NCBI GenBank assembly: GCA_903813345.2
Contig: CAIIXF020000001.1
Location: 10,044,001-10,108,000, forward strand
Source of the DNA: Owenia fusiformis
Taxonomy: Eukaryota
DNA: 64,000 nucleotides
Direction: 5' to 3'
Shown piece after piece: positions 3,052 to 58,933 of this stretch (positions within the stretch are counted from its first letter, which is position 1; each line of letters begins with the position of its first letter). The notes below the pieces were generated by a model, which saw only the letters and a program-made list of their open reading frames with translations, had not been told where the DNA came from and made no database searches. The translations under genes and the position numbers were made by a program.

Positions 3052-14875
<11,824 letters not shown>

Positions 14876-16908: not shown

Positions 16909-17173
16909 CTGTAGATTGGTGGATTGAAAAAATCTGCCAATATTCAGTTCTATTTTGGAAAATCCCTAGGAATTTGCATTTTGCAATTATTTCATTTGTG
17001 TCCGCTTTCCTATTTGGATGACAGTGCAACAACACATGAATCTGAAATGTTTATTTCAAAATCTATGATATAACTCTAGCGCAGTCCTGACTCTGCCAAA
17101 TCAATAGCCCGCCAATATTTGAAATTGAGAAAATCAGCCAAATTAAGTAGCGTCAAATTATAGTTATCTACAG
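16909..17173. mobile_element. Short TA-flanked MITE related to 19062-20017
   Basis: TA|CTGTAGAT ... ATCTACAG|TA; shares gccaaattaagtagcg.caaatta with 19960-20017. Confidence 0.65.
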
Positions 17174-17787
17174 TACATGAACTAGGTATGTTGAGCTGTA
17201 TAACAATTTTTGCTCTTATTCCTTCCCATGCCTACTTTTTAAAAAGTCCACCAGTTACTGACTTGATTGAATTTGGACACTGCATCTTAAGTGTTTGATG
17301 ACACCATTTGGATCACATATCTTTTAAGAAAATAACATTTTAAATGTTATTTGAAAATATTGCATCAAACAAGACATTTCATTCTCATTTATTCCTCTAA
17401 CCAAGAATTGTAACTTTTTTGAATGAATAAAAGCCTGTTTGCTTTATTTTGAGTTTCAATAAACATCCCATTGACAAAATTATAAAGGAGCCTTTGTTTT
17501 GGGAACACCCTCCCTGACTATGATAACAGCCAAAGAGGACCCCTATGGTAAATTGTATACCGACATCGTTCAAAGTCAACTATAAAATCACACATTTTAC
17601 AATAAAGCTTTTAAATAGGAGGTGCTAGTTATAAGCAAATATGCTTTCAGTATCTGTGATGAGTTCTGTTGAGAAAGGGAGATAAAAAAAAACATTGAAA
17701 TATTGCTTTCATTTTCAGGTTGTCCATAAAAATTGCTTTTAAAATACAATAAAACTTATCAAGGGTGACCATTGTCCACTTGTAAAA

Positions 17788-17875
17788 GACCAATCAGGCC
17801 AATCAGATGAATACACCTCCTTACAGAAAATTAGTACCTGTATCATTTATAGATGGCATATTAGTCAATCAGAAA
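17788..17875 (+). promoter_or_regulatory. Putative proximal promoter of ClC exon 1a with tandem CCAAT boxes
   Basis: gaCCAATCAGgCCAATCAG about 70-85 nt upstream of the ATG at 17876. Confidence 0.45.
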
Positions 17876-20800
17876 ATGGCAGCTGTATCAGGCGGAAGTG
17901 CTCCAGATCAGAGGAAACCATCCTTTGGTTATGAACAAACTCTGGTATGTATGTTCAATTTCTATATATCATTATAACGGTGAATTTGTTGAAAAATTAT
18001 ATGGAAAGTATGATTGCAAAGTATTCTCGGGAAAGGTCGATTTTATGTTCACAACAATTTTTTCAATTTTTTTTGTTTATTTTTGTCTAATTTTTTTTCA
18101 ATTTTTTTTACACTACAGAAGGGTATTTAAGACTATAAGTAAGTCTGTATGGTAGTCTATTCTGACTTATTTTTGTTGTTCTTGTGTACCTCCCAAACTC
18201 CATTCTAGCATAAGTTTGCTTGGGTATCATATCAGTTCAACGAGGGACCTCACTCTCTTCTCTCACATTCATGTACACTGTTATCTTGTTCCAACACCAT
18301 CCTCTTCGTTTCTGAACGTAGAGATAGTCTTGGAACGAGATAAGTACACTGTACACAGAGACATATATGTAAATTTTATATGTCTCTGCTGTACATAAGG
18401 TTTATTTAGGTGTGCTAGCTAGAGTACTTTGGGGCATTGTCAGACATGGGGTATTGTTGGACGATCTTCACTAATTCTTAGTTTTATATGATTTCTTTAT
18501 TGAAACTTCAAATTAGACACGTCGTTGTATTGTAAAGTGTCTAACAATGCCCTGTATTTGTATTTTCACTTGATGCTACATGGTCCCTCGAATTAGCTAA
18601 GCTTATATTACTGCAAGTACAAATGTAAGCTCACACACTGTTGATAAGATCAGGATTTTGTGAAAATATCAATCCATTCAATCCAGCTACATATTTCAGT
18701 ATTTTTCTTGTTGACTTAACAACAATTTCATTATATTAGGATGGTGCGAGAGTGAGAAATTGTTGAATGTCCTCTTGTTGACTAAATTCTGCGGCTAACA
18801 AGGGTCAAGAAATTGCTCACTTTTTCCTAAATTGTCCTTCTTGCAGTTGGTATTTTGCATGTTCATCAGTGATGGGACCATGGTCAAAAGATTGCCTGAA
18901 ATAAAAAAAATCCTATATATGAAAACATAGGCAGAGAAATAGTTATGAAAATATACACAGAGAAATAGGTATGAAACCCCCTTAAAGAATAGAAGAAAGA
19001 GGGGACAGTGAAGAACAATGTAGATAAAAAGGCTCAAAATATAATAATAAACAGTCATATACTGTAGATTGGGTTAATTTGGCGCCCGCTTTAATTTGGC
19101 GAATTTGGCGAAATTGAAAAATTCGCCAATATAAATCTTCGCCAAAATTTAGAATGAATCCCCGGGAATTATCTAGGATATTTCGTCCAGTGTATTAAGG
19201 TCACTTCCGGTTTATTTTTTCAAAAAATATGAAAAAATGTCTCTCATAAATTGGCTCAGAACTGGTCAGTCACTCATTAAAGCAGATATGAAATGGTATT
19301 TTTTAACCTAAAGGAATCAATATAATTTTTTGATAAATGTATTTGGACATATTTTCTCATCAGTATTGCGAAAACTATTTCACTCTAACGATCGTTATAG
19401 CTGCTTAATAAGCAATATTCGAATTGGTTGTGACGTTATTGGCCCCCACGTGATCTCTCACTGGTCCCCACATGGCCCATAACGTCATAATGCCAAAATG
19501 TTTTGTTTTGGTTTTCACTACAATCCTATGGTTGCCGTGACGTTGTGATTACTAAGGAACCAATAAACCAAAGCTATATTTTGTATATGACGTTACTTAT
19601 CACGTGGGGGCCAATTTGATTGATCAGTTAGTTTTATTTCGTTATTTATGACCGTTAGCAGTTATCTAACATTTATTTTATAATGACTATCGCAAGAACT
19701 CTACATTGGGCTTACAAAGGAGAAAACCGCATTTTTGTAGCTGCAAGTTGAGAAAAGCTATTTCAGTTGTCCTTTAATACTCAGGGAAGATTAGAAAGGA
19801 AAGGATGATCTCACAAAAATGTACAAACGTGGTGAATATCGCCAGTGGTCCTCAAAAGAAAAAATGATCAAAGCCAAACATGCCCATTTACATGGTAATT
19901 CGCAAACACCGCGTAGGTTTAACATCTTTTGCATATCCGCCAAATTAAATAGCCGCCAATATGCCTAAAATGGCAAAATCGCCAAATTAAGTAGCGCCAA
20001 ATTAACCCAATCTACAGTACTATACAGAATCAGTATTTTATCATTTCCATATTTATTGTCATGCTTACATTTATATATGTGCAATACTGCAATTAATTCA
20101 CTGCCTACCCCCCCCAAAAAAAAAATGCATGAATCATGTATTGTAAAGCTGTGTTTATAACTTTAATGGATCATAAACATTTTAAGGTCATTTTGGGTCG
20201 AAAATGTCATTTACTTGGCAATTATGCTGCAATGAAACAGTTGGTAAACAACATTTTCTGTTGACAATGACATACTAAGTTATCATCCCAGTTGCTAGTA
20301 AGACATAATTTAACTCTGGGCTAGGAGGTCGCGTAACATAAATGTCAGCTTTAGCCATAAAGTAAAATGTTAAGTCATAAGAATGCATCACAAAAACATC
20401 CCTATATATTCAATATTTTCCAATCTTGTTACATCTGATTTATAACTCTGGTTCCCATTACTACCTATTTGTACAATAGTAAAATATACAAACTGTGGTT
20501 ATGTAAAACCTGTATACTATGTTACTTTTAAAGCTTATAATGAATATTCAGTATGGCTTCAGAGAGATACGTATACGTTGTATTGCAGATCATGTTTGTA
20601 ATGTTATATCAACCTTTGTACATTTTTAACTGTAGGAAATCATATCTGATGTTCTCAGCAGTCCTTTCCATTGAAGATAATCGAAAATAGATTCTTATGC
20701 TGTAAAACCCATCTGGAAATTTTATTTTAAAATAGTAATAATTACCCTTTTGATATACATAGATTTTTAAAGGGTACTGTTTCATTTTTGGCTGCCATTT

Positions 20801-23800
20801 GAGGATTTTGACAACATTTATCAAATGATTTCTAGTTTGTATTGAAAGGTTGTAGATTGACTCATTTACCATTGTATGCTAATTCCTTAACAATATGATA
20901 ATTATAGGATATCCTATGGTTTTGAGGAATACCATTTTTATCTACGAGGTGATATTGATATCTGCACGAGAGAGCGAAGCGAACGAGTGCATATATAAAT
21001 ATCACCGAGTAGATTAAAATGATATTCTGAAAAAAATCATAGGATGTTCTTATTATCCTACACTTACAAGGAATGTACTGAATGTATAATATCATTGTAA
21101 AATTAATTCTATGCCAAATAGAGTCAATTTGGCGGGAAATCAACAAGCGGAGTATATCGTCACAATATCCTCCGCATATTGGGTTTTCCGGAGTATATCG
21201 TCACGATATCCTCCGCCCGGAGTATATCGTTACGATATCCTCCGGATATTCATTTTGCCAATAAATATCAAATTTATTTTTTCATGTTATTATACATTTA
21301 GTACACTAAGTGTAGGATAATAAATGTTCCGCATAATATGTTTTTAACAATGAGAATAATTTTATTCAAGTTTCATTTTTACTTTTTCTACGTTTACATT
21401 TTTCCTCTTTTTTTGAAATAATTGTCAGGAAAGAATTGTTTCATCAATGGGTGGTGGCTGATTAGTATTTGGAACTTACTTAAATGTCTCTGTGCATTAA
21501 GAATTAATATTGTATGTGCATGTTGAAATATAAGGAATCTATAGAGAATTTAAGAGATTGTCTTCCTTTATTAAAACATGTATAGATTCGGCCATCTGAT
21601 GTGCCAACAAGGACATTTTTATTAGTAACTGTAAAACTAAAATATTAATTACCCACTGCCTTGTAGTCTTAAATTTTTTTATTTTTAGTTATATTCATGG
21701 TTTTCTTTTATCAACTTACACCACTAGTTTTTCTATTGAGCTAAAAACATGTTTGATCATTGATAGATGTCTCTCATCAACAAAGGAATAGAATCATTAT
21801 TAGGTAAGACCATAAGAAGTAGATTCTTCATTTCATGTCACTGCATGCATGATACAGAGTTAATGAGATGAGCAAACTATGTCCCTATGTCATTCATATC
21901 TACTGATGTAGCAATGAAAATTGATCTTCATTTACTATAAGTAAATATAAATCTGTGTGTCGATTTTGCTATGTGAAGGTTGGCAGACCATGAACCAAAA
22001 ATAAGTTAAAGAATCATTGCATTGTTTTCATGAAATTTCTCCATCCTCATTCCAATTAATTAACATTTAGTAGAGGGTGTAGAACTCAAAATGTTTTAAC
22101 CCAAGGTTTTAACATAAATGATTTGCAAAATTTAAATTTCAGAATTTTAAATGTTTTCATACAATGTGGTTAACAATTCACGAAAGATGTTTCTCTCTGC
22201 CCTTATTTGGATGAATAATTGTTTTCAATTAAGCTACATACATGCAATATCTATTCCTCTAAGGGTTCAGTGGAGATCATTGCAGAATTTGTCTTAGAAT
22301 GGAAATTAAGTTTGCTTAAGAAGATTTAGTCTCCAAAGTCTCTGCAGGAATAAACTAGTCTGGCATTAATACCAGTATTTTAGGCCAAGAAAATAATAGT
22401 CTGTTTTCTGGTCATTTATTTGTAAATTCTAAATGCTTATATTCAAAGATATATGATGTGCAGTTTCTTTCTATTTTATCAGTCCACTCACTATTCAAAG
22501 AGAAATTATGATAAACTTATTTCTCTATGTAATGCATAAAGTTTTGCCCTTTTCCAACTTTTAAAAGCTTAAAAAGAAGATAATAAAGATTTCCATTTCA
22601 AAATAAAAATTAGGCCTGACTACCAAGATCTAAACTTAGAAATCCTTGACCAGAAACAAGAATATTTTTTCTGGCCTTATTTAGTCGATGATTCTCCATT
22701 TTTAGAACACACTCTTCATCACATTTATCTAAAGAAAAGCTTGTTAGTTGTGATAACAATGCACTTGAGGTATACAGGTAAAACATGGCCAAATTCTATA
22801 GCATATGACCTATATAAGTCAAGAGCAATAATTGAGTATTCAGCTTTAGGATCAAAATGTTTTTAGCTTGAAATAAAGAATTGTCTTTTTAAAGAGAAAA
22901 AGCAAAAAGGAAAGTTGGTGACTTTTGATTTTATTTTCCTAAATAACAATTGAACTATCAAATTCACAAAAGTAAAAATTCTGTCTTCTCTTTTTTTGAT
23001 GAATTCAGAAACATTTTGATGTAGAAACATTTATATTTAATGTTAGGTACACTTTATCTGTGGTCGATTTTCAGTACTTAAATTATCATTTAAAATAATG
23101 AAAGTCTGCATTTAGCCAAATATTTCTTGGCAATTTCCTAGGCTACCGTGAAGCAATCTTATATGTTGTATAAGATACAGTTTCTTATTCATTCCTATAA
23201 GATCAGATAGATTACCAGATTATGCCATTTTCCCAAATTGCAAAAAATCCAATCATACTCAAATGTAATATGACCAATAAATCAAAGCAACCAACTGGTT
23301 TAAATTGGTGATGGAATTAGAGGAGATTTACATTGATTATTCAAACTTCAAATTTCTGCAATGAGTAGGATGAGCTATAAATGTTAGGATAACTGAAATA
23401 ATTAGCTAGAGGCCAAGTATCTCAATCCGTAAAGTGCTTAAGTACGTAATATGTTCATTTCTAGTAATACCTGCCAATGCAAGATTGCTGCTCTTTAACT
23501 CTGCCTTAAAGTCTACCAAAGATAATTTCATTTTTTCACAGCTGATTAGAAAAAAACATGAAAAACATGAAAAATGCATACAAAACTTACCTTTATTGTG
23601 GAATGTGGATACTACAGAATGACTTACTAGTTTATTTATTATAGAGAGACAATTTGATGTATTAAATCGGTCAAAGGTCCGTGTGTTATCTAACTGTGCA
23701 AATAAAAACTCCACTTCACATTGTCTTTGCTGACAAGCTGAGAGATACATTCTCACACAATAAAATGGGGGAGTAGCTTCAATATAAATTTTTGAAGGAT

Positions 23801-26800
23801 CAAAATTATGGATTTGTTAAGCAAAATTGAATATATTTAGAATTTACCAATGGCTGGAGCACTTAATGATTTAAATTCAGAAGAGGGGATTTCTTCTCAG
23901 TCAGATGGTGCTTCAAAGAGACCCAATTACCAACGATCACGTTCTAGGGTCGCTTTGGATTATGTAAGAACCTTGGTAGGTATTGTTTACTTGTTAAATC
24001 AGCCACATATGAAAAATATTGCAAAGGTAAATCTGACAATGAAACCCGTTGATTGAGAAAATAAGTTTCATAATCTAAGTTTTGTTATTTAGTTTAAATA
24101 AACATATAAGTCAGATAGGTAATTAGGTCACAATATAACAATTACTTATGTACAATATGTACTAAAAACAACTTATCACAACAACTTGTGAACTTATCAT
24201 ATTGTTACATACAGTGTACAATGGTTGTATGCTATAGCCATTAATTGCAGATCCTCTTTTTGCATTTGTCTGGTTTTACTACGGTTTCAGTATGTATATA
24301 TAATATATATAGGTTATTTACTGGGAGGGATTAAATATGGGTTTTATTCCGAGGGACAATAAGATATTGACCGAAGGGTGATATGATATTGACTGAGGGA
24401 GCGCAGCGACTGAGTGTCAATATGATATTGCCCAAGGTCAATATTATATTTTCGGAGGAATAAAACCCATATTCAATCCCGACCAGAAATTACCTATTTA
24501 TTCCATAAAATGTATTCAGGGAGATCTGGACTTATTCTATTTGTTAACCAGATTGTGTGTCAAAATGTTAAATTGTCAAAATCTTGTATTCATTTATATA
24601 AATTGTCAACCCTCGAATTGCCTTAGAAAACAAATATTTGATAAAATAACTGTTTTTTAAGTTCAAGATATAGAATTAAGACTGGACTTAGCTAATCTTG
24701 AGAATCGTAAAATACTTTTGTCAAAGTTAATAAATCATGTTTTATTCCATAGTTAGCATGATATTCACAGGATAACATGTGAAAATAAAAACGGCATTTT
24801 TGTAATCAGTGGTAAAATATGATATTTTTGAAAATTTTCACTTAACCATAACATACGGTTTTTTAGCCATGACATACGGCGCCGTATGCGATGGTTAATG
24901 GATTTTTGCTACTTCAGACTCAAAACGAGGCTAAGTGTCAACATCGGCCGAATCGTTTGAAAAATTCGAATTAAATAACTTAATTTCTAAATAGAACATC
25001 CTATGATTTATGAGTGATATGATTTTAATCCACTCATGGATATTGATATCTGCACTCTCTCGCTACGCTCGCTCGTGCAGATATCATATCCATTCGTAGA
25101 TAAAAATCATATCACTCATAAATCATAGGATATCCTCTATATATTTGTAAATATCTAAAAATTATTTAAAATTGGATAACAAGTGATAAAAATGACCATT
25201 TTGATATATTAGTAAATCTAATAATCATTTGATATATAAATTGTTGGACCATAGATTTGCCTAAAAACATGAATATTTGAGGGAAAAAACTTTATTTTTA
25301 TAAGTTGAAGGTTAAGAATTAAAACTTGACAAAGGTTATCTTGAGTAGCTAAGATACTTTTGTCAGATTTAATACACCAGGCTAAAAATGACTGTTTTGA
25401 TAAATTAGTAAATCTAATGGTAAATATTGTTTCTTCTATAATAAGGTATATGGACGCTATACCAAAGATTTAGGTGATTATGCTCGAAAGGAGGCTGCAA
25501 CTTTGCACGAGAATGAGAGAGGATTCAGACAATATGAGACATCACGCTGTCCACGATGCAGAGGTATGACTTACTTTATCTTTGTTATAAATTTTGACAA
25601 GTTTGCTGTGAAAGACTTGAATTGCCTGTTGCCATCATGCAGTTTGATGCAAGTAATATTTTTGTTAGTTATGCCCCTTCTTGTCTTATAAAATTTGAAA
25701 AGTAAGTAAGTTATGTATTTTTGGGTATATGGTGATCTTTTGTCTCATTTCAGCATTTTGTCTTGGTGTGCGAGAAATCACTGCCAAAGTTGTTGCAAAG
25801 ATGGGGGAAGATTGGGTGTTCTTGGCAATACTTGGTATTTCCATGGCACTGCTCAGCTTCCTCATGGACTTCCTCATAGAAAAATGCCAAGAAGGTAAGA
25901 ATATATAACTTTTATTTTGTGAGATAAACCCAATTCATTATTGCTTAATCCCAGGTATTTTAAAAGAAAAGTCCTATTTCATGTCACTTTGGAAGTTAAT
26001 TCTAAGCTTGCCGTAACACTCCAACATGAGTCCATGTAATAAGTAATAATTTGTCCTTCAAACGTGGGTTGTAAATATTCTACAGCTTGCAAGAATAGAT
26101 CTTGGAGGATACTTTTCTCTATACTAATTTCCTATTTTGAATTGTTATTGTCGAGCATCTGATTTAAGGTGACACTTGATTATGAAATATTTCAACCTCT
26201 TCGTTCTACTCCTTGTAAAATGTAACATCTACAATAACATGATTATTTTCCAGTCTTTCCTTAATTTTTTTGAGTCATGGCAATCTGCGCGAGATTCCAT
26301 TTTTACTTGGTTCGATTTTTCGCGCATGTGCAAAAATAAAAGCACTTCATTCCCATGATTCATATTGCTTTTCTGAAGTTGGTTCGATTAAGGGCTTATT
26401 TAATACCTGGGGCTTAAGTTGTGTACCAAACGAGACAACACGACATCCGGGGCTTTATATGATCTGCATTACACAATGGTGTATAGAGGGGTCAGTTTTC
26501 GCAGACCTAGGTACCTTTTTCTGTCCCGTTTTGCGGTTATTTTACTCTATGGCATTGCAATCCGTTCACATCATTAGCTACATAATTGATTAACTCAAAT
26601 ATATGATATGTAAATAAGGGTTAATTGGAACAGAATAAACAGGGAAATGTACTTGAAGTGTGATTGCGATCTGTCAGTCAGTGTTACCCCCCTTACCTAG
26701 CTCTATAGCGCGGTATAAGGTGACCTGATTATGCAAATGAGAAGACCCCATTGGTTTCTTGTCAGAACAATCAAAACGGATGCGGACAATCTTTGTTTCA

Positions 26801-29800
26801 ACTTACCAATCACCAACATGAACTGGCATATTCAGCTCTGGACTTCATGTCCAAAGGGGGGTAACACACATCGTCAGAATCAAATTCAAGTTATCGCACC
26901 CCATTTTAATTGGTTGATAAAACAGTATACAAAAGTGTCTTTATACTCATTGTACAGTTTATAATGTTCATCGAAATAAAGTCTTTAATTTAACCAATCA
27001 AAATGAGATTCAGGACAACGGACACTGTAATTACCATATGCCGTTGTCTTTCTAAATTACTCAAATTCAGATTCCGTTGTCATTGACGTTATCGAAGACG
27101 CTATATTGTGGCGATTCATGAACCAATTTGATCGAAATGGGATTTTATATGATATATTATCACAAGAGCTTAATGCATGCACAGAATTAGTGACGATAAA
27201 ATCCCATGAAATGAGGACCAAGTGATTAAGCAGTTGAAGCGACGGTTATGTCCGCCATTTGTGACAACGGTATCTGACTTTACCGTATTCAGGCTATTCC
27301 GGTGTGTTAATTTAATGCCTAAAATGGTTTGACAAATAACAGCCTTACCAGATTGAGTTTCAGAATAAAGTTCCAACCATTTTATGCTTATTAAAATGAT
27401 TTTAACTTATTCAGTTGAATGTTTATAAGTTTTACTTCATTTTATTGTGAATTCAAATGCACATTTTAGGATGTGAATATACTAATAATATATGGAAATT
27501 CATAAGATAAATATGATATCCTATGATTTTCTCAGCCAATCATTTTTATCCACTCTCTCACTGCGCCCACTTGTGGAGATGGTCAATATGCACTCATGGA
27601 TAAAAATAATATCCCTCAAAAATCATAGGACATCCTTTATCAATGCATTCCAAATGAAACATCCTGTTTACTCCAGAATTGAATTGTATTTCTTTTTAAG
27701 TCATAAGAACCCTAACCTTGGTCGCATTTTTATTTGCCAAGAGTCAATTGCTTATTCCGCTTGCCATTCATTAGGTAATCTTAACCAGAGCTAATCCTAA
27801 GTACCCAATCATAAAAAGTAGCTGTAAATCAAGAGTAAACCATGGCTATATATTGCCGAACATTCAGCGTAATATTTTTTATCTTATCCCTTTTTTCGAG
27901 TTAATGCTCCAGCATTTCAAACCTTGAGAATGACTGTGACATTTCGCAGCAACCGTAATTATTAATGTATAATATCTCATAGAGTTCCATATCTTTAGTT
28001 ATTAATTTGATTTTACTGTGCTGTAAGAAGCAATTAAGGAACTGATATTCAATATTGAGTAATTATTGAGTAAAATATTGGATGTATTTTTTATCAGAAA
28101 AGGTCAAAATATTTGTTGAAATGATAATCTTAAAAACATGTTTCTGGCATTAGAACAGTTTTGAAGTTTATTACTTATAAGAATGCAAATCAAAAATTAT
28201 CTTCTTTGAAGCTGGCTGTATTATGTCAGGCTCATTAAGAACGTTTCTAAGATCATTTGAAACCTCATGATTGAACTTTGATGTAGTTAGGTTATGAGAG
28301 AGCATACATTCTCTTCCATACAAAATATTGTATAAAACCATGCCCTGTATTTGAAGTAGAAAAAGTACAAATAATACATGCATTTTCAGTAAACATTTAT
28401 GCTACATATTTATGTAATGTGATGCAAGATCCAAGGGTAGAGAAAACACTTATCCTTGTAGGCTATTTCTTTAAATGTTATTTCTGTAATGAGAGCAAGG
28501 GATACCTGAACATTTGCATTCTAATTATTACATGGTAATCTGTAAATAGCCTGAATATTGATAACATTCTTGGAGATGCCTAGATTGAAGGTTATTTGTT
28601 ATTTGGTCAGCTGGGAAAAGGGAGTAAGGCAAAAGTATTTTTGTGAATATCTGAAGTAGCTACTTATGTGTTGGGATAGGGATGCTAAATATTAATTTTG
28701 AGCCTCAAAGTTTTTTTGCAAGAATAATACTTAAATATAGTCATGATACTTTATTATGAGGTTTAGGATATTGGAATTATCCAGAGGCAAATATCTGCCC
28801 CTTGGACACGTAGGCCCATATTAAAAATACAGCATTTAAGAAACCTGCTTCATATACATGTACATCTAACATATTACCTCAAATACAGTCAAGAAAAGGA
28901 CAAATACAAATATTTCACAAGCAATATTCTTCAAGACCGAAGAGTTATTGTATTGTTTTTCAAGTTTCATAAATAACTCAAAAACTTTGAGACTGTGGAT
29001 CCCACAATGCAAAAATGTTAATACTGCAAGATGATGGATGCTATGTATATATGTACATGTTTTTATTGTTTGTTCCAGCTCGATTATGGCTGTATGACTT
29101 GAGTAAGATTTCAGTGGCATTGCAATATTTCACATGGATTCTCTTCCCCCTTATCTTCCTCTTATTCTCTGTGGGATTCACTCACCTGGTGGCGCCACAA
29201 GCTATAGGTAGCTATAGTTATTATACAATTTCAGATTAATCAAGATAAAGTGATATTATATTAAGACCTAGCACCAAAATTGAGGCCAAAAGGTGATGGG
29301 CGAACAATATGTTTTGGTCTAAGAAATTTGATATCCAAAACATATAAAAAATGAAATACATACTGTACTCTTCTTCATTCAAATTATTTTTATTTGTTTT
29401 GATTTTAGGTTCTGGTATACCTGAAATGAAGACTATTTTGAGAGGTGTGGTGCTGAAGGAGTATTTAACAATGCGAACCCTTATCTCTAAAATGATTGGT
29501 CTAATGACAGCATTGGGTAGTGGGTTACCAATAGGAAAAGAGGTGTGTTATATTTCATCAATTTAGGACTAGAAATATCAATACAGTAAAACCTTTATGT
29601 ACGAACACCTCTCTAATCTGAACACCTCTCTCGTATTAATACTTTTGAGCTTTATTACCCACCCATTAACTCCCATGTTAAAAAACTTTTTAAACGATTT
29701 TTGTGTCACCATTTTTGTGAGGCCGGTAGGTGGTGACATTTTGCATGTTAATGCCTTGTTTTTACATCTTTTTTAATTAATTCAAAATTAATTGTATTTC

Positions 29801-32800
29801 CAGGGTCCATTTGTGCACATTGCCAGTGTTGTCGCAACACAATTAGGGAAACTCTTCACAACATTAAAGGGTTCATATGATGTAAGTAAAGAGATATTAT
29901 TTCTAAGTATACAACATTTCCAAGGTTATAATGTGGTTCTTCCCTTACCAATTTGTTAGTAAACAGATGTTCCACATGAGATGTTCTTCTTCACTTAGAC
30001 CAAAATCATGGCATTGACTTCTGTTCCATGAAAACAGCAATTTTGCTATTACCAAAGGACGATTCTCGGTTTGGAGAACGAAGTTCATCAATCTAAATGA
30101 GCGTTATCCCTGCTTCGGACAAATTTGATTTTTTTACATAATATAGATTTGAATGTCTTCTTTTGAATAGTCATAATTTAATTTGGGTAATATTTCTAGA
30201 TTTTTCGCAAAAAAATGTTACGAACTTCTTTCCCCAAATCAAGACTTGTATTTTATTGAATCGGTCTAATTGAGCGTTATCCCTGCTTCAGACCAATTTG
30301 TTATTTTTACATCTTGTAGATTTAAATGTCGTCTTTTGAATATTCATATTTTAATTTGGGTAATATTTCTATATTTTTCATGAAAAAAATTATTAGCCCC
30401 GGAGACTGTTCTCCAAACCGAGAATCGTCCTTTAAAATGATTATCCAGAAACAAGCAGATTTTGGATTCCATATTTTACCAATATGTGGTTGCTTTATTT
30501 GTGTTAGTATTTTTCTTTCCTGAAAGTCTTGTGAAATTTGTAATTTTTAGAATGAATCACGTAAAGGTGAGATGCTATCTGCAGCTGCTGCTGTTGGTGT
30601 TGCATGTACATTTGCTGCTCCAATTGGAGGTAAAACATACGCTTTATACTATTAAATCTTTTGAGGCATTGTTTTTAACCCTCCTTTAGAAGATGGAGTT
30701 TTATACCTTATGATACAGAATTCAAGTCACTTTCCACATCAGATAGAGTCCTTATCAGTAAAGAAGACCATGATTAAATATTTTGATATTTTGTCATTTT
30801 TCTGGTATCCTCTTCAAAATTAAATAAAACATACAAAAAATGTATTTATACATTTATACTGTACTTGCAATAATGAAAGGAACATATGAAACATCCTCAT
30901 TGTTGTTATAATGTCACCATGACTTTAATACAGACTGCTTATCTTGCATTTCAATTCAGTGTATTAGTATGAAATAAGATTCCATCCATTGTAATGTTAA
31001 ATCTCTTTAAATGTATTTTTGTACCTTTAAACAGTTATATTTTGTCTTTTAAGGTGTATTATTTAGCATTGAAGTAACTGCCACTTATTTTGCTGTGCGG
31101 AACTACTGGCGTGGATTCTTTGCCGCCGTGTGTGGGGCCGTCATGTTCAGGCTGTTTGCCATCTGGTTTAAAAGCGAAGGTAACTGTCTTATTCAATCTT
31201 TAAATGTTCTATTTCGAAAGGTTACACTACAATCGTTTTATTGAGTTCTTTTATCCCATGTACATGTAGATGTTGTTATTTATACCCTCACATAAATTGA
31301 TTCCATATGTTTTCAATAGCCTGGTGAAAAAAAATATTAAAGGGTTATGTATCATTCCCCAGCCTATTGCCAGGTTAAGTAAGTTTAGACCTAAAGTAGA
31401 TCTGACTGACATGTTTTAACTGAATCCTAACCTGTTTTACAGGTCTGTAGACTGAATTTTAACATGTTTTACTTTATAATGTCCATTGTTAACCTAAAGT
31501 GGACCAAATTAATTCTAATAAAGAATGAATTGACTGAAAATTAACCTGTTAATAGGTCTTTAACCTGTTTGAAACCTAAAGTGGACCAACAAAACTCAAA
31601 TGAATTTCAATGTGGGACATAGACCAAAAAAGGACTGAAAGTACCTACTGTATAGCTTAACGTTAACCTGCTGGAGGATACATATAATTAAGCAGGCAAT
31701 AGGCTGCATGATCTTGATATGGCTTTTCACTTGGCATTTGAAATTTAACGCCAGAAATTGCATTGTGTTATGATTTTAATTTCTGTTTATTTTACCTAGA
31801 TGCGCAAGGTATGTTATTGATGGTTCTAGGTTAACATTTCAGTCTTTCCTGTGCAACATTAATCTCTAACTTAACAGGTTGTGGTCTAAACTGATATACA
31901 ATTTGTCTGTTTAGTAGACTGAGTAGAAGGAATACACTGCAGGCCAGTGCAGGGGTTTCTTTGGCAACAGACAACAAGCAATGTTCTGTTGTTTTTACCA
32001 AAACTGCATTTTTCAACAGTATTTCCATGATTTTTTTTAATGATTGTATTAATTTCATTCACCATATTTGGTGTGTATAAATGATACCCAATTATTTTGC
32101 CTGTTGTTTTCATTTATTTTGCCTGTTGTCTGACATTCTGAAGAAACCGCTGAGTCTAGCTAATTAACATGGACTTAACATGCAGTCTTGCATACTGACT
32201 TCTTCTGCATCTTGTCATTCCACAAGGCTCATGTGACATTGGCAGAGAGTCTACACATTGGATTGTAACACACATGTCTAGGATGTGTACCAAACATTAT
32301 GCTATATAATATGTAATTTATAACTGGGCTATAACTCATCTTTGAAACAATACAGAGATGCAAGTCAAGCTCTTGGGTATCTCATAATAATTTGGTTATA
32401 TTCTTAGTACTTAGCTGTTATAGGTAGTCAGATTCACTTTTCCTGTGCATCAATCAAACCCTAAAACATGAGCAATCAAATGACGCACAAAAAAGTGATT
32501 CACACTGTAGTCTTTAAAACACATTTGGCCATAATACCTGATGAAACTGCAGGATTTAATTCTATTTGTTCTGACGTGTAATGAGCTTGATAATGCTTGC
32601 TCATTAAAAGGTTTGTCTTTAAGGTCTGTTGGTAGATACAAACAGTACTAGAAAAAATTACTTCTTGGGTTTCCATTCCATAGTTATGTATTATGCATGT
32701 AGTGAAGTCAAATGCCATTTATGTACACTCAGTCATTGCTCTATTGTGAAGTTTACTCAATAGAGAGCTCACAAAAATAAAGATGGCATACAACACCAGA

Positions 32801-35800
32801 CTTTAAACATGGTCTGAACAATTTAAACAGAGGTATAACTCCTGCTAGATGTATTTAGAGCCTGGTACTAAAATACTTATATTTGTCCCTGGTTAGAGAG
32901 CATTAGAACCATGGGGTTTACTGCATGTAACCTTTGACAGGGATCCTCAGCTCATGTGGGTTAGTCTTGAACCCCCTTGTGTATTAATATACTGCCAGTC
33001 TTTTAGAAATTACAGTTCAGATTAATCTTGCAATTGTATTCAGGTTTCTCTGTGAATTCTTTCATGTGTGGTATTCCTTATTCCTTAAAGACAACAAAGT
33101 AACATTTTCATTAAAAATCTGCTGCTTATACCAAATGAAACATCAATTTGAGCATGCATGATTTTCAAAAATTGTACTGCTGTAAGCCTGTAAGAGTTAA
33201 ATACATACAAACATTATACAAATAGTGACTGCCATTGAGGGCAATAGTGTAAATTATTTCCCAGAGGGAATATCCTCTACAATGTACTATTCCCGAAGCC
33301 GCAGGCTGAGGGAATAGTATATTGTAGAGGATATTCCCAAGGGGAAATCATTTACACTATTGCTCGAAATTAGGCAGTCACTATTTGTTTTATTATATAC
33401 CCTATACTGACTCTTGTCCCGTTTCCTCTGCGAAGGCCAAAAAGGCTTAGAAAGCCCCCTCCCCGGGTCCATTGTTAGCATTATAAGCTGTGACGTCATC
33501 AGATGCTCAACAGAAATTTTTGCCTCTGAGACTCTCACTTGACAAATTCAATCACATTTAACACGCGGAATAGATTATCATAACACTTGAAATTACACAG
33601 ACGTATTGAGCTTAGGGAACTTTATACACGTTGCTTATATTGTATCGTTCACGGACGTCTGTCATGGTGAACGGAGTTGATGTGTGTTTGTGCTCATCCT
33701 CCATTTTTCTGTTTTTCGTCTGCGCAGTGATGATGAGCAGACATTTCCAAGGGTAATAGAGCTTGCAATTGTGATGTCAGCGGGCAATAGTTCAAATGTA
33801 TATTCCCGCTGACGTCACATTTGAGGGAATATAACTTTCCGAGGGAAATAGTAAATCTATTTCGGAACACGTGACTAGGTATTGACCAATCAGGATTAGT
33901 GTTACATATTGGGTATATAATAATCTGAATTATATTCTGATTATGTTTTAGAAACTCTCACAGCATTGTTCAAGACAAACCTCAGGCAAGACTTCCCCTT
34001 TGATACAATAGAGCTGGTAGCCTTCTCAACTATTGGGTGAGTCAGACATACTTGTACCTTCTGAACTTTCATGTAGGTCTAGCACATATTCTTAAGTCAA
34101 TAAGCCCACTCATCAGCAAGTTGAGTTCAGTAAGCCCTCTGAGCTAGAATGTGAGTGAAATATGCCCTTTGAACTATTAGGTGGGTCAGCTGAGTGCCCT
34201 TTAATCCTCTCAATTTTTGGGGCAGTCAAACTAGACCTCTCATTATGAGGAAGTCCAATAAGTTTCTTGAGGCTCTTATAAATTTTTGATTCATGGACTT
34301 GCTTTGTCTTTGATCGTGCCATCTCTTACAGTACATGAACACCTAGACTTGAATTTGAGAAAAAGTGCAATATACCTGTCTTGTGTAGTTGATGATTATC
34401 TAAATGTTTTCTTCTATATACATGTACAAACCATGGTTCATAACATTCAGTGTATGTGATAGTGAATAAGATGTAATTGTGTTTTTAGGATTGTATGTGG
34501 GTTTGCAGGTGCCCTCTTTGTCTTCATACACAGAAAAATAGCTACTTTTACTCGAAATCAAAAAAGAATAGCAACATTTTTACAAAAAAAGTGAGTAACA
34601 TTTTTTATAGTACCTATTGTGCTCTTGTTGAATTATTTTCAATGTTCAATCTATGAATCTACTTTAAAAGATAAACCTAATGCTGTTACTTGGATAATAT
34701 GATACAACCTATAAAATAAGATAAAATTACAAAAAGCCAGATTTTTCCGTCCTTCTGTTTGAGTAGCTTCCTTTTACCAGAAACCACTAACCCATCAATT
34801 TCTTCAATCATTTTAATACATATGTGAAATACTATAGCGATTTCTGCATTGCTGCTATTTTTCAGCTTGTTTTATTAGTCATTTCCTGTGCATAACTTGT
34901 TAGACTATGTGTTTTGGTCATGTATCAAAACTGTTCTGACGTGAAGCCTGATGTCATAAACCAACTCATTATTAAAAAAAAAATTCATGAGATCTGTACT
35001 TATAACAAACTGATAGTCTATATATTACATGCACCTTCATTTGTTTCCAGTCGTTTTATTTATCCAATGTTAGTGACGTTTGTTATCTCATCGCTCACAT
35101 TTCCCAATGGATTTGGTCAGTTCATGGCAGGCCATGTAAGTAACACGTTACACATCTACATGTACATGTAATTGATTAAATATATTAACACCATTTACAG
35201 CATAAACCTAAAAGCTAATTTAAAATGGGTGATCTTGAGCCAATGTGTTTTTTAGATTTAAATTCTGAATTAAATTTAAATTTAGATGTGCATTATCTGG
35301 CACTCTATGTTAATTCTCATCCATTTCGAGAAATCTTGGGTATGGGTTATTGGCATTGTACATGGGTCATGAATATAACTCTGAAAATGCTAGAAAATGT
35401 TTTCACTCAAGTTCTCACTCCTTGCAGCTCACTAGTCGTGGTGCAGTAAATGACTTGTTCAGTAACTTTACATGGAGCAGTGCTAAAGTTCGCTCAGCAG
35501 AAGAGGCAGAAATAATCAATCACTGGAAGCCAGAGAATAGCAATATCTACGTCACTCTAGCCCTATTTGTGCTCATGAGGGTGAGTCATACCAGCAAACT
35601 GCTTGTATAAATGTAAAGTTCAACAGCTAAAACCTTTAGGCTCATAATGAATAGTATCTCTTTGCCATATTGAATACTTTTTGATGCATTTCTTTCATCT
35701 ACTACATTACATTATGTGCTATTTTAGTTCTGGATGTCTGCAACCTGTAACTCTCTACCTATACCTGCTGGGATATTCATGCCTGTATTTGTACTTGGTA

Positions 35801-38800
35801 AGATTTCTTTATTACTTCAAAGACATTTAATATGTCCACGTATCTATACTCAGATGGCAATAAAATCAAGAGAAATGACCAAGTTAAATGAAGCCATTAT
35901 TTTCATTATTTAGAACAATCATGATTGTGTACCAAGTTTTTATCATGAGAAAATTTATTTTCTGCTTCTTCCCCGAAGTCTGTCTTTCAAGAGGAACTCT
36001 TTCACAAAATTGACAACATTTATATCATTTTCAAAATTATGCTTAAAAATCTCCCTGTACTGTAGTTCTTACTTGTAATGTTTTCATGTTGGATTACAGG
36101 AGCTGGGTTCGGTAGACTTGTTGGAGAGTGCATGGCTACTTGGTTTCCTAATGGCGTTAGGCAGGGGGATACATTCTCAGAGATAGTGCCTGGAGGATAT
36201 GCTATAGTCGGTAGGGCTTATAATGTTTGTCGTCATTAAAGAGTTTAAGGAAGTTAATATTTTGATCCCAATGCTCATCTCTTCTAAACACTGTTTTTAT
36301 TACATTGTCCAAATACAATAAGTTGTTGACTTGAAGATGCTTATACATATATTTGATTTGAAGGTGCTGCTGCATTTGCTGGTGCTGTGACACACACAGT
36401 GTCAACATCAGTGATTGTATTTGAACTCACTGGCCAGCTTGGACATGTGTTGCCTGCTGTTGTAAGTAATATAACATATATGTCTCATCGTGTCAAATTG
36501 AACATTTCAAAATTGAATCCAAACTTAAACATACAGTATACTACTCATGAATACAATTGAACAAGAGTTGTATTATAAATTCAATGTACTGTTTTGTATT
36601 TTATTACATGATGTATAATAAACAACAATTATGAAATATGATAAATAGGAGGGGTTCCATGAGTGAACCTCGTGGTACTCCATATCATATATATAAATAT
36701 GTACAACCTCGGTTATACTTAATTCGAACATTGGTTGTGAAATATTTTACATTAAAAATGTTGTTTTGCAGATAGCTGTGTTACTTGCCAATGCTGTAGC
36801 GCAATCTTTGCAGCCTTCATTCTATGATAGTGTAATACAAATTAGAAAATTACCATTTTTACCAGATATAAAATCTTCAGCTTCAAAGTAAGTTGTTTAT
36901 GCTTTGAAGTTTACTAACTCATGTTTTAGATGTTAAAATTCAGATGATTACAGTGTTAGTGTCCCTTGTTTGTTCACTTTACATACATGTATTTAAGATT
37001 TAGTATTGAAATTTTACATGATTGTAGTAATTGATAATTAAATACAGTTTAATTGGTCTAAAGATTTTGAAATTAGTATTTTGCCATCGATTGTTTGAGA
37101 AATGAAGTTTATTCCATTTGGAATAATGTTTTTAATGAATCTGAATGCCATATATTTATCATGTAATTGTTTGTCCATTTATCTTTTGGATAGTTTCCAG
37201 GTTTTCTAATCCTTTAGCGGGTAGTGTAATTGGCATCTTTTCAATTTATATGAATGCGAATGCATGGTTGACCCCAGTTTCACCAGTGTACTTTATAAAG
37301 ACATTCAGTTCAGTATGTAAGACAGTCCACAACACGTGGAAATTTCAACATGTGATATCTTGAAGGTCTAAGTAAATAATCAGACTTACATGTACAAATT
37401 CAAATGTTTTTCAGCGCTCACAAAATATTTGTTGAAGATATAATGATACGGGATGTTAAATTACTCAGTGCCAAATCTACATATAAAGATATAAAGAACT
37501 TGCTCCATAAAGCTACACATCGATCATTCCCTGTTGTAGACAGTCCAGGTAAGTTACTTTAATTTGATCGATTTACACTTGTAAGTTGCAACACATATCA
37601 AAAGATTCTGATTTACTCTACTTATCTTACACTGTGAATTAGATTATAAAAAACTAACCACTAGAAAAAAATAATATTAGGATACATATATGTATATATG
37701 TACAGGATTTTATCTCATCTCATATCTCTTATGTACGTATGTTTTGATGAAATAAATAAAAAATAAATCAAATATGTTGGGTATAGAGTTTAGGCTGAGG
37801 GAAATATTATCTTTCCGAGAGTCCATGGGGACTGTTTGCCATTGCTATGTTATTACTTTCATGTGGATTGTCTCTACATAAGATTTTCTTGAAGGCAATT
37901 TTAAATTCATTCAACCTCACAGCATAGATTATGGGATTTATGCTACTATTGACCAGTACTAATGCACAAGAAATATAGAAGATAGATAAATTGGTGCTAT
38001 CATTGAAAAAAGAAGTCTTTACTGTTGACCATTTAAAGGTTTTTCCCCATATCTCAATGCTGACCATAATTACAAATGGACCCCAACAAAGGAAAAATAG
38101 TCCAATTACAATGCATGCTGTTTTCAGTACTTTAAGGTTGTTTTTCAGGGATGTTCCATCTGATTGTTCAGTATTCGTATTCCTGTTGGCTTTTTTGTTT
38201 AGCTGTTTTCTGGCCACATTAAGTATTCTTATGTACATGATAAGTATACTTATGAAAACAGTTAGAAACATTGGAGCATACAAGAGTTCCAATATAATTG
38301 TGTCTTCCTCCAGGTTTTCACTATATATGCAGTCTTGTTTCTCATTGCTCTGCTGTAGAACAAAATACCAGTCAGTGATTGAAACAGTTGTGATTGTAAT
38401 CACACCAATCCAAACGGCCAGAACTGCAATCCTAGCTCTCTTCTTGGTGACAATAGTTTTGTATTGAAGTGGTTGAAATATTGCAATGTAGCGATCTATT
38501 GTTATACACAGTAATAGCAGCAATGAAGCAAAACTCGGGATGCCAAAACAAATCTGTCCAATGACACATATGATGAAATTGTCTGTGTTTATAGAGGGGA
38601 ATATCTGTGACAAAAGCCATAGAATGTTATAGAGTCCAGATATCCCAGCAAATAAGTCCGCTATCGCTAATTGTAGTATGAAATAGTTACTTACAGTCCG
38701 CAGAGACACATTAGCTCTATAGGCAGCAATAACCAATGCATTTCCAAATACTATACTAAATATCATCACAAAGCATAGTGACATAAAACCAAGTGCTTCT

Positions 38801-41800
38801 TTAAATGGTAATGTTGTTACATTGCTTCCTGTATTATTATTAGCTGAGTCAAATGCATCCAATGTACTGGTATTGATAGCCATATTGTTGGTTGAATCAA
38901 TATTTCAAATATAAGTTTTTTCTCATTTACCACTTCCACACTAAATGCGTCCCTATTTTTCAAGTCACTCAGCTGCTTTAGACGAGAGAATATCATCCCA
39001 TTCTTTTTAGTGAGTCTTTACAGAGATCATTTGATTCATTTTGATTAAATAATAGATGATCTTCAGACATCCATTAATCTAATAGGAGCAAATTGATCGT
39101 GATTTAATGTATAAATTGTTTTCATTAGAAATCCTGTCAGATTGGTAAAGGAGTCATAAGAGCATGCTCTTCCACTGTTCCCCTGTGTCCTTGATCATGA
39201 ATGTATCACATGATTCTCACTGAGGGATGGGGACAGAACTAACAGAGCCCTCAGATGGACTTGGAAAAAATAATAAAAAGCAACTCTTGTCAGTGGGGAG
39301 GAGCAGTAGATGGGGTTTAACTTAGAATAAGAATCAATTTTCTTTCATTTAGTTAAGGCAAGGGGTAAGAAATAAGCATGTGGACACTCTTGATTACCTT
39401 ATAAGCAGCTTTTGAGTAGAAAATTAAATTGTGTGAAAATCTTTTAATTTCTAGTAAAAACAACCTGCTCCTCTCCATTGACAAAATTAGGCGATTACAT
39501 CTCGTGTGTATGTTGAAATGTTTTTCTCCATTTCTCAGTACTAACCATGATAATTATAGATGGACCCCAACAAATGAAAAATAGTCCAATTACAGTGCAC
39601 GTTGCTTTCAGAACTCTAAGGTTGTTTTTCAGGGATGTTCCATTTGAATGCTCATTATTCATATTCCTATTGGCTTTTTTGGTCAACTGTTTTCTATAAG
39701 GGAATAAATGTCTTGACATGTATCGGAAATATCTTTGATAGAGTAATACAAAACAGACTTGTTTTTAATGCTGAAATGTTAGACATTCAAGATCCACTCC
39801 AAGGTGCATATAAACCTGGACATCAAACAACAGATAATTTATATATTTTAAATACAATCTTAACCCGTTATAAGCTCATGAAAAAGCCACTATACTGTAT
39901 CATGATATATTTTAGAAAAGCATTTGACTATGTAAATAGAGTGGCACTTATGTATAAACTTTGTAAATCAGGAATTTCACCTAATTCTAATATATTCAAG
40001 GTTATATCTAGAATGTATGAAAAAATCAAAAGCATGTCTAAAATTTAAAGAAGGTATCACCCCTACTTTCGAAACAAATGTTGGAGTAATGCAGGGCTCT
40101 GTACATAATACCTATTTATTCAACCATTTCCTTGATGACTTAAAAGATAATTTACCAAAAGAAAATGGTATTCAATTTAATGGAAATATGTTAAACCACT
40201 TTGGGCCGATGATCTTATCTTGATGTCAAATAGTAAAGATGGTGCCCAAACTTTGCTCAATTGCCTTTTTTGATTTTTGTAAGAGATATCATCTCATAGT
40301 TAACACAATGAAGACAAAAGCAATTGTTTTCAACTCAAAAATTGATGCTGTTTTCACATTAGAGAATGTTGAGCTGTACAAATATCTTGGATGTGTATTC
40401 AGTAAAACAAAGAATTTTGACCAGCATGTATTTTACTTGAAAGAGCAAGCAAGAAAGGCTTTGTTTAAAGCAATATAAAAAATTTAATGACATTCCAAAT
40501 GATGTTGCATTGCACCTTTTCGATTCCTTAGTTGAACCTATTTTAACTTATGCCTCAGAGGTGTGGATCAATGAAAAACATCTGAAGACAATTGAGACAA
40601 TGCACCTATCTTTTCTTAAATGCCTGTTGGGTGTTAAAAAATCAACAGCAACACCAGCAATTTATGGAGAATTGGGACGCTACCCATTAAAAATACGCTT
40701 TGAAATCAAATTAATTAAATATTGGCTCCGTTTACTTCATCTATCACCGTGAAACATTCTTCATAAAACATAAATATATGACCGTGAAATGAGTCAATTT
40801 GGTTTTAAAGGCACTTGGTCAAACAAAGTCATTGATATATTAAAAAAGTGTGATTTATTATCTTATTGGGATACTCAAAAGATTGATGATGACAATATTT
40901 TTATCAAGACAATAACAAAAACACTGTATCAGAATTATAAAAAAGAAAGATATATTAAATAACCCTGTCTTGAGAAATGTCTTTGAAAGAGAGAGTTATT
41001 TAAATATCCAAAATAGAAATTACAGGCAAGCAATTTGTAGATTTAGGCTTAGTTCCAACAAGTTACAAATAGAACTTGGTCGTCATTTGAAGCCAAAGCC
41101 AAAACCTGTAGATGAACGTTTATGTAATATTTGTGGTATTTTAGAAGATGAACAACACTTCATCATGATTTGTAAGAAAAACACTACAGAAAGAAAACGT
41201 TTGTTTGACACCCTTACACAATTTAATTTTGTTGGCAGCCCTGACATTATTTTTGAAAAACTGATGTTTCACAAAAATTCTTATGTAATTTTACATTTAT
41301 CAAAGTTCATCTATCATTCACTCAAAAAACTGGATTAATGTGTCAACGATGCATCACACTGATATTTAAATTTCTGTCAAGTCGTATCTGTATTTTACAA
41401 TTATCTTGTATTTTGTATTCTACATTTGATGATATAATTAGAATTGTATTTTATAACAACTTTATTTTTGTATTCAGTAGTTAGTTTAGTCTTAGGTCAG
41501 TTTTGTAGATTGTAGTTTTTAGTGACTAATATGTCATTGTAATGACATCAGAGAGTCAATAAAAGATATATATATATAAAAGATATATATTTCTAGCCAC
41601 ATGAAGTATTCTTATGTACATACATTGTAATTAGAATACCTATCAAAACAGTTATAGACAGTGGAACAGCTTTGGTACATCTAAAAATGTTTCACTTGGG
41701 AGGTGTTTCGCTCACAGGGGTTAATTTAATATTATTGTGTGAGTATTATGTACTTCAAAGTTCTGAGGGAAGTGTTATCTTGTTGAAGGTTCACTTTCAT

Positions 41801-57800: not shown

Positions 57801-58933
57801 TTTTATAAGCTTAAGACATTTACAATGCAATGCCAGGCTCTTAGTCAGGATTTGCCAAGGGGGTGTCCACCTTTAGATATGTTTAACAGGTTGTGCTGAT
57901 TGCTAAGTCACTGTAAATATATAAAAATGTATCTATGTATTTCTATATAGATGGAGCATGTTAACGCAGTGAATTGCTGGTATATTTCAATGAACTGCGC
58001 TGCAATGTTTAATTTGAAAGAATGTACATAGATGTAATGTAACTTCAACAATTACTGTAATTGCAAGAGCACAAAATAGCACATTTGTGCTTCAAATAAA
58101 GAAGATTAATATATATAATTATTTATTATCATGTTTATTTCTATAATTGTATAAAAACAGTTTAAATCTTTTCATTAATATATGAGTACATCACTTTGGT
58201 CTATAAAATATTTCCATATTTTAAATTAAAAAAATAATTTCTTTAAAATTTCATGAAAATCATATTGAACACTTGTTGTAGTTCGTTCGTTGGATACATT
58301 AAATTACATTAAAATACATTGTAATTATGTATCACGATTACAATGACATTGATACACACCAGTAAGATCAATAAATGTAATGACAACTGTAGCCTAACTA
58401 CATATTAATATAATATTAATACTGATTGCTCAATTTCTTAATGTCCATGGACTGACAGAAACAAACATGAATTTGAAATATAGAAATGACATTGACATGA
58501 GAATGAAATTTTGTACATAATGAAAATATGGGCAAGATTATACATAATCATGATTTTTGGTTTATATAAATACTGATTCAAAACATATTGCATCGCTGAT
58601 TTTGAAATACTATGTACACATTATTAATAGTCCCCTTTCGCTAGGGTATATCTCTTTGGATTGTTCAGCTATCCTGAGATTTCAGCTACTGTTCATAACA
58701 ATATAAAAGTATATGATGAATCATCGTAAATTTGGCTGACATTATGGCTTGTTCTCAATTTCATATGACTTCATGGTGATACTCTTCTAATCTTTTAAAT
58801 TGGAAGATATTAAAACATGATTAAGGGCGATTTATCTCATATCTGCCTGCTTTAAAGCTTTGTCATCACTGCATATTATGTGGAAATCATTAAAACCATT
58901 CCTTTTAATAATCCAAGTTTGAGAGATTCAGAT

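Follow-up and report, generated by a model that had tools for sequence, protein, structure and literature searches.

The 64,000-nucleotide window analyzed here, part of contig CAIIXF020000001.1 of the annelid Owenia fusiformis, contains a ClC-2-type chloride channel gene on its plus strand. The gene has 23 coding exons, ends with a stop codon at 56341-56343, and shows GT-AG borders at every intron. Two alternative first coding exons, 1a and 1b, are separated by ~6 kb, have different upstream sequences, and are both in phase 0 with a common exon 2 (Table 1). The corresponding proteins are deposited: CAH1772896.1 (857 amino acids, beginning MNTPPYRK) matches 17807-17944, exon 2, and the 21 later exons letter for letter, and CAH1772897.1 (853 amino acids, an "unnamed protein product") matches 23850-23975, exon 2, and the 21 later exons in the same way. 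Neither protein holds both first exons; each exon joins exon 2 alone. The two are the members of the 90% cluster of the 853-residue protein and are identical at 814 of 823 aligned residues, with all mismatches before the join and none from VYGRYT on. A first-pass annotation of the window had placed exons 1a, 1b, and 2 and their phase 0 joins correctly, as the deposited isoforms reproduce them with GT-AG introns.

The identity of the channel is well defined. The 853-residue isoform contains the Pfam domains Voltage_CLC (PF00654; E = 1.4e-74) and CBS (PF00571; E = 4.8e-07), and a phmmer search against the Protein Data Bank (PDB) returned CLC-2 (7xf5_A; 1.8e-257), CLC-1 (1.3e-226), CLC-K (6.4e-156), and ClC-3 (1.2e-66). 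Named homologues are called "chloride channel protein 2" or "chloride channel protein 2-like," and Foldseek ranks 1 to 5 for the AlphaFold2 model are all human CLC-2. AlphaFold2 models of both full-length isoforms, built from 87-sequence alignments, are good in the membrane and CBS domains, with a mean predicted local distance difference test (pLDDT) score of 79.5 and 79.6. The gating glutamate motif GKEGPFVH and the motif SIEV align identically with human CLC-2; SIEV is the channel-type motif, which stands in place of the second Glu of the exchangers. By these similarities, the gene is the O. fusiformis ClC-2 orthologue and belongs to the plasma-membrane channel branch rather than to the exchangers.

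The two first exons differ in a part of the protein whose role is known from mammals. In human CLC-2, residues 14 to 28 form a hairpin (residues 14 to 27, ALQYEQTLMYGRYT) that plugs the cytoplasmic pore mouth, as described in passages of a structural study (PMC10942593). According to the same passages, the hairpin makes two hydrogen bonds with the channel in all, Q19-Q153 and T20-R363, its negative surface is said to aid binding, and rat Q25/T26 mutants have an open-channel phenotype; deletion of the hairpin makes currents ~sixfold larger, faster, and less rectifying and abolishes run-up (PMC10942593). Alignment to 7xf5_A (E = 1.8e-257) places the exon 1/exon 2 join of Owenia at human L21|M22, inside the hairpin, and therefore exon 1 gives strand 1 and exon 2 gives strand 2, beginning with a V directly after the join, where the human protein has M22. 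At the level of this mapping, the proposal that each first exon supplies one half of the hairpin holds.

Each Owenia isoform is identical to the human hairpin at 10 of 15 residues, and the identities are not the same ones. Strand 1 reads SFGYEQTL in 1a and ALDYVRTL in 1b. The latter keeps A14, L15, Y17, T20, and L21, i.e., 5 of 8 strand-1 positions, and changes Q16 to D, E18 to V, and Q19 to R; A14 and L15 are absent from 1a. Of the two residues that bond to the channel, Q19 is kept in 1a and is R in 1b, and T20 and its partner Arg are kept in both. This Arg (human R363) is R378 in the 857-residue numbering and lies in a column of the 87-homologue alignment with at least 90% conservation; the columns of T41 and L42 in the 1b isoform reach the same level. 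The first-pass annotation described the change as the swap of an acidic strand for a basic one. This captures the change only roughly: besides E18>V and Q19>R, 1b has acquired an Asp in place of Q16, and strand 1 carries a net charge of −1 in 1a versus 0 in 1b.

The motif at the end of exon 1b is unlikely to be a chance occurrence. Y-x-x-T-L directly followed by GT is found twice on the plus strand of the 64-kb window, exactly at the ends of exons 1a and 1b; the minus strand has two chance matches. When the 7,501-base intron between exons 1a and 2 was shuffled 1,000 times with dinucleotides preserved, 85 shuffles had at least one YxxTL plus GT, and in 2 of the 1,000 this combination closed a frame that opened with ATG and ran for 20 codons or more. 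Outside the motif the exons were held to be unrelated, and we find the same: 35 of 90 aligned bases around the donors match, and BLASTP aligns no more of the two first exons than the last 12 residues. Over the last 27 coding and first 6 intron bases, 20 of 33 match.

The 5' ends of the two exons offer further detail. Exon 1a has a second in-frame ATG at 17876-17878, 23 codons after the deposited one at 17807. It was chosen as the start in the first-pass annotation and is indeed present, although the deposited isoform starts upstream of it; CAH1772896.1 contains the entire 1a peptide that begins there. Of the two ATGs, that at 17876 sits in the better Kozak context (A at −3, G at +4), and a start there would give an N terminus of MA plus ~14 residues before FGYEQTL, an arrangement shared with nemertean and mollusc orthologues; it may be the true start codon. 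The ATG at 17807 lies directly 3' of two CCAATCAG boxes, and the CAATCAG copies near exon 1a may be candidate CCAAT-box promoter elements. In the putative leader of exon 1b, two upstream frames, of 3 codons (ATG 23765) and of 10 codons (ATG 23808, stop TAG 23838-23840), might damp translation of the 1b isoform.

A run search listed 16 sequencing runs, 10 of which hold part of a 231-base 1b stretch; none is on record as RNA. Four of the 16 were mapped on 17000-32000: two sets of raw stranded RNA reads, X11 and X12 (~6% of each read), and two contig sets, X1 and X5. In X11 and X12, five junctions, from exons 3>4 through 7>8, are covered by 1 to 5 reads per raw run in the orientation expected of a plus-strand gene, which indicates that the channel gene is expressed, weakly in this sample. 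The same five junctions occur in a spliced 638-nucleotide contig of X5 (depth 56.9), and this set therefore contains RNA-derived sequence; X1 behaves as DNA, since its contigs run colinear across introns, and has no bearing on expression. In 500-base bins, depth in X11 and X12 is 0.47 and 0.31 for the bin of exon 1a, 0.6 and 0.08 for that of exon 1b, and 0 to 0.26 in repeat-free intron bins. X5 has a depth of 0.07 on exon 1a and, as its record 12, a 198-nucleotide contig of depth 5.6 that is colinear with 23734-23931; its two ends lie 116 bases 5' of the 1b ATG and 44 bases short of the 1b donor. This contig could represent a separate 1b leader and equally fits pre-mRNA or DNA. Separately, four intronic stretches (19004-21508, 24014-25516, 27020-27520, and 29525-30526) are covered very deeply by the RNA runs on either strand, and in the contig sets their depth is in the thousands or tens of thousands; these are transcribed dispersed repeats, and loose read ends accumulate at 29727-29761.

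The Owenia genome paper describes, in the passages concerned, a pipeline with Mikado, Augustus, and PASA that gave 26,966 genes and 31,903 transcripts; the deposited isoforms of the channel gene presumably stem from transcript alignments, as is usual in such pipelines. Both isoforms are already public annotation, and what is new here is the reading, i.e., that the swap point falls between the two strands of the hairpin, not the gene model. Also beyond the annotation is that the same swap point appears to be used in several other invertebrate groups (below). A search of the accessible literature found no discussion of the Owenia ClC-2 isoforms and no description of alternative exons exchanging a CLC-2 hairpin strand; a paper on Drosophila ClC-a reports isoforms of 113 to 132 kDa and, in the passages concerned, does not mention N termini.

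To place the two strands among other animals, we used the best 150 of 11,994 proteins found by a full-library HMMER search at E ≤ 0.001 and the best 120 of a word-indexed search. With three cluster look-ups, this gave 393 proteins, 237 of which have a recognizable strand 2 and at least 9 preceding residues, yielding 66 distinct strand-1 nine-mers. Among the listed proteins, the canonical strand 1, [F/L][G/D]YE[Q/E/H]TL[M/L/I], runs from corals to birds, and exon 1a is therefore the ancestral exon. E is found at position 18 in 32 and Q at position 19 in 30 of the 66 distinct sequences.

Several arthropods and octopus have predicted isoforms (computer predictions, RefSeq/GenBank models) in which alternative upstream exons are joined at the same point, before [M/L]-[Y/C]G[R/Q]Y. 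Among 13 listed proteins of the crabs Scylla and Portunus, strand 1 is LEYEVTLM in 4, LQYEESFM in 3, and FEFEIQQM in 3; one is unrelated, one starts at M-YGRYS, and one has no motif. The 15 listed members of a Penaeus cluster include 6 with L[H/Q]YEESFM and 3 with LEYEVTLM, besides 2 that are unrelated, 1 that starts at M, and 3 with no motif. Isoforms with RQYEQTLM and with FDYTFTVM come from a second gene of Penaeus vannamei. FDYTFTVM (once NYDYTFTVM) recurs among the listed proteins of decapods and a stomatopod. In a thrips cluster, the sequence at this place is LGYQRTLM or MDYVQTAM; in the spiders Argiope and Larinioides, it is ALGYEHTLM or ETDGSPAQM. In octopus, FGYEQTLL (9 of 15 listed) is accompanied by ILDLRHKL (3) and HLYLPDQL (1), with 2 models N-terminally incomplete. 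Several of these isoforms keep a Y/F-x-x-x-x strand (DYTFTV, YEESF, FEIQQ, DYVQTA); they come from other phyla and, outside the motif, cannot be aligned with 1b. The alternative forms all join immediately before the residue preceding YG[R/Q]Y, and several independent models start at that Met, which fits a ClC-2 intron at the same place in many lineages. The decapod strand exon need not be a first exon, because several forms carry ~190 to 420 extra upstream residues. For two nemerteans, five bivalve genera, amphioxus, sea urchins, and a hemichordate, the listed isoforms (68 proteins) showed no alternative strand, N-terminally incomplete models aside.

Owenia resembles and departs from several known systems. 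With human and rat CLC-2 (PDB 8ta3 and 7xf5), whose hairpin spans residues 14 to 28, it shares the family, the distance of the motif from the first membrane helix, an identical strand 2 (YGRYT), and T20 with its partner Arg. It differs in having two genomic versions of strand 1 through first-exon use and a His, not Gln, as the partner of Q19. In Shaker-type K+ channels, alternative 5' exons exchange N-type inactivation balls and thereby tune inactivation. That family is unrelated, and the whole ball is exchanged there, versus one strand of an intron-split two-strand hairpin in Owenia. N-terminal splice variants of mammalian ClC-2 (Furukawa 1995; Cid 2000; both cited in PMC10942593) are likewise N-terminal isoforms and, in the passages that cite them, are proposed to modulate ball-and-chain gating. 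In Owenia, a full alternative strand is substituted. This sets it apart from the mammalian variants, which reportedly truncate or remove the N-terminal region. CLH-3a and CLH-3b of Caenorhabditis elegans are, as in Owenia, isoforms of an invertebrate ClC-2-type channel, and CLH-3a also has an N-terminal extension. Their gating is strikingly different, which a meeting abstract attributes to the C terminus and CBS2 rather than to the hairpin strand (PMC2442181).

The reading that we favor, and hold to be rather probable, is that 1a and 1b are mutually exclusive first exons, that both N termini are blocking hairpins with 1b as a retuned plug, and that exon choice tunes gating. Two promoters ~6 kb apart most likely drive the two first coding exons. 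Either exon joins the common exon 2 in phase 0 at the L21|M22 point, 1a encoding the ancestral first strand, FGYEQTL, and 1b a 42-residue N terminus ending in nine residues (ALDYVRTL and the shared V) that keep the scaffold residues of the hairpin; both N termini would then fold into a blocking hairpin. Because the channel-bonded Q19 and the negative charge matter in human CLC-2, the 1b plug should bind differently. With Q19 and the neighboring acidic residue replaced and the scaffold residues kept, this plug is probably retuned and weaker, bound less tightly or with a different voltage or time dependence. The 1b current would be larger, faster activating, and less rectifying than the 1a current, and exon choice could tune gating by tissue or stage; this predicted difference between the isoforms is extrapolated from the human and rat data.

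Several observations weigh against this reading. A search with the 1b peptide (11 candidates) matched solely Owenia's own protein, so no conservation of 1b was seen; a search with residues 1 to 100 at E ≤ 0.01 (65 candidates) returned the query alone, at a threshold too strict for a database of 5.8 billion sequences. Coverage of the first exons is 1 to 2 reads per run, and none of 17944>25446, 23975>25446, and 17944>23841 is among the 15 of 101 joints listed for ~6% of the raw runs. These missing joints are uninformative, because the constitutive 25563>25754 joint is likewise not among the 15, and 86 joints are not shown. In the AlphaFold2 models, the N termini have pLDDT of <50 and no strands (residues 1 to 47 in 1b and 1 to 50 in 1a); they do not bear on 1b, since the canonical 1a hairpin is not modeled either. 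The partner of Q19, human Q153, is H168 in Owenia, and His is the invertebrate consensus, so the human Q19 contact may not transfer exactly. Finally, Arg stands at the Q19 position in SLGYQRTLM and QYDLQRTIM, perhaps the main N terminus of two other animals, and R at position 19 may therefore still allow normal block.

The last point leads to the alternative that two promoters serve different tissues or stages and that the hairpins are equivalent blockers, with E18V and Q19R functionally neutral. Such equivalence would suit the retention of 5 of 8 strand-1 positions in 1b, including T20 with its conserved partner Arg, the occurrence of R at the Q19 position in other species' N termini, and two exons ~6 kb apart with separate upstream sequences. 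Yet E18 and Q19 prevail in the count of 66 strand-1 sequences given above, and mutation of rat Q25 opens the channel, according to the passages on this mutant (PMC10942593); we therefore consider neutrality doubtful. It is also unlikely, in our view, that the 1b N terminus is unable to plug the pore, which would make 1b a constitutively unblocked isoform, comparable to mammalian N-terminal variants or hairpin deletions, with a YxxTL left over from an old exon 1a duplication. The loss of Q19 and of the negative charge in 1b would agree with this, and so would octopus (ILDLRHKL, HLYLPDQL) and spiders (ETDGSPAQM), whose alternative exons lack a hairpin-like strand at the same join and so suggest that a plug-less isoform is a recurrent solution. 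A relic, however, is not expected to keep A14, L15, Y17, T20, and L21 in an exon that is otherwise dissimilar, and the chance expectation is ~2 in 1,000 shuffles.

The remaining alternatives concern exon 1b itself. If it were non-functional, a rare or spurious transcript start in intron 1 would have been made into an isoform by the annotation pipeline. Coverage near the intron background (1 to 2 reads, against 0 to 0.26 per 500-base bin), the failure to find a homologue of the 1b peptide among 11 candidates, and the two short upstream reading frames in the putative leader would be in line with this. However, coverage of exon 1a in these runs is no better, which leaves low depth without discriminating power, and the X5 contig on 23734-23931, from a set that contains RNA, has a depth of 5.6 versus single-read pieces of depth 2 in the adjoining intron. 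With its 42-codon open frame from an ATG, a gtaggt donor in the right phase, and a hairpin motif at its end, exon 1b is, we think, quite unlikely to be an artifact. The first-pass annotation also raised the option that 1b follows 1a as an internal cassette exon ahead of exon 2, giving a tandem YxxTL. The "ag" at 23839-23840 on which this depends is there, and the frame is open from 23841 in phase with 1a, but other observations speak against a cassette. The pyrimidine fraction of the 20 bases before this AG is 0.40, versus 0.55 to 0.80 (mean, 0.66) for the 22 real acceptors; neither of the two deposited cluster members uses it, and the X5 contig crosses 23839-23840 unspliced. The AG, moreover, is the end of the TAG that closes the 10-codon upstream frame. 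We regard an internal cassette as highly improbable.

Owenia offers a natural pair of channels that diverge in strand 1 of the plug and are otherwise identical; the changes fall exactly on the contact residue Q19 and the acidic residue beside it. Ball-and-chain gating of CLC-2 was disputed for 30 years, until structures in 2024 revealed the hairpin plug; in the passages concerned, the authors name N-terminal splice variants as a possible reason why native CLC-2 currents vary so much (PMC10942593). We also raise, tentatively and as the less likely case, a broader possibility: the intron that splits the hairpin may be an old conserved module boundary at which protostome ClC-2 genes exchange strand 1 alone by exon or promoter choice. 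If true, the isoforms would form a set of graded blockers, from the canonical strand through retuned ones (DYVRTL in Owenia, DYVQTA in thrips, and DYTFTV, YEESF, and FEIQQ in decapods) to none (octopus and spiders). It would amount to a general and as yet undescribed means of setting ClC-2 rectification and open probability by tissue, and the natural strand-swap variants would be ready probes of the disputed mechanism.

Table 1. Features of the ClC-2-type channel gene and of the receptor genes within it (positions in the window)
Feature	Position	Strand	Remarks
CAATCAG, three copies, two as CCAATCAG	17791, 17801, 17867 (span 17791-17873)	+	Sequence reading; flank the upstream ATG of exon 1a
Exon 1a, coding part	17807-17944	+	Deposited start ATG 17807; ends ...SFGYEQTL; phase 0; donor gtatgt
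Intron between exons 1a and 2	17945-25445	+	7,501 bases; exon 1b lies within, as do several elements that are highly repeated and transcribed from both strands
Exon 1b, putative 5' leader	23734-23849	+	Two short upstream reading frames within
Exon 1b, coding part	23850-23975	+	ATG 23850-23852; 42 codons, MAGALNDL...; ends ...LDYVRTL; phase 0; donor gtaggt
Exon 2, common to both isoforms	25446-25563	+	AG at 25444-25445; begins VYGRYT...; ends in phase 1
Exons 3 to 8	25754-25894, 29079-29207, 29409-29542, 29804-29881, 30551-30629, 31054-31179	+	
Exons 9 to 14	33952-34036, 34489-34590, 35051-35135, 35428-35580, 35728-35797, 36100-36210	+	
Exons 15 to 19	36364-36461, 36772-36887, 37415-37548, 52015-52211, 52362-52425	+	
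Exons 20 to 23	52820-52911, 53353-53457, 53963-54049, 56212-56343	+	Stop codon included
Receptor genes, intact frames	37807-38904, 45461-46486, 47565-48587, 49759-50841	−	Pfam 7tm_1, E = 1e-41 to 1e-47
Receptor gene, split copy	41775-42254, 42194-42853	−	Two overlapping frames, probably a frameshift
Receptor gene, fragment	39495-39764	−	

The 14.5-kb intron at 37549-52014 holds, in antisense orientation on the minus strand, a tandem array of intronless rhodopsin-type receptor genes (37807-50841). Several retroelement-like frames lie among them on the plus strand (39620-41338); Pfam gave no match for 39620-40048 and 40916-41338. Another plus-strand frame, of 530 codons (7333-8925), has a reverse-transcriptase-like YADD motif. 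Upstream of the channel gene on the plus strand, the frame listing points to a Vasa-type DEAD-box helicase-like neighbor at 3337-3957 and 11904-14237, with one exon that has Gly-rich repeats and five CCHC zinc knuckles and later exons that have helicase motifs. Downstream, minus-strand exons lie at 58876-62310; Pfam gave no match for the piece at 58876-59271. These exons encode repeated LGPG(S/Q)Y, which we take to resemble the repeats of SHIPPO/ODF3-type proteins.

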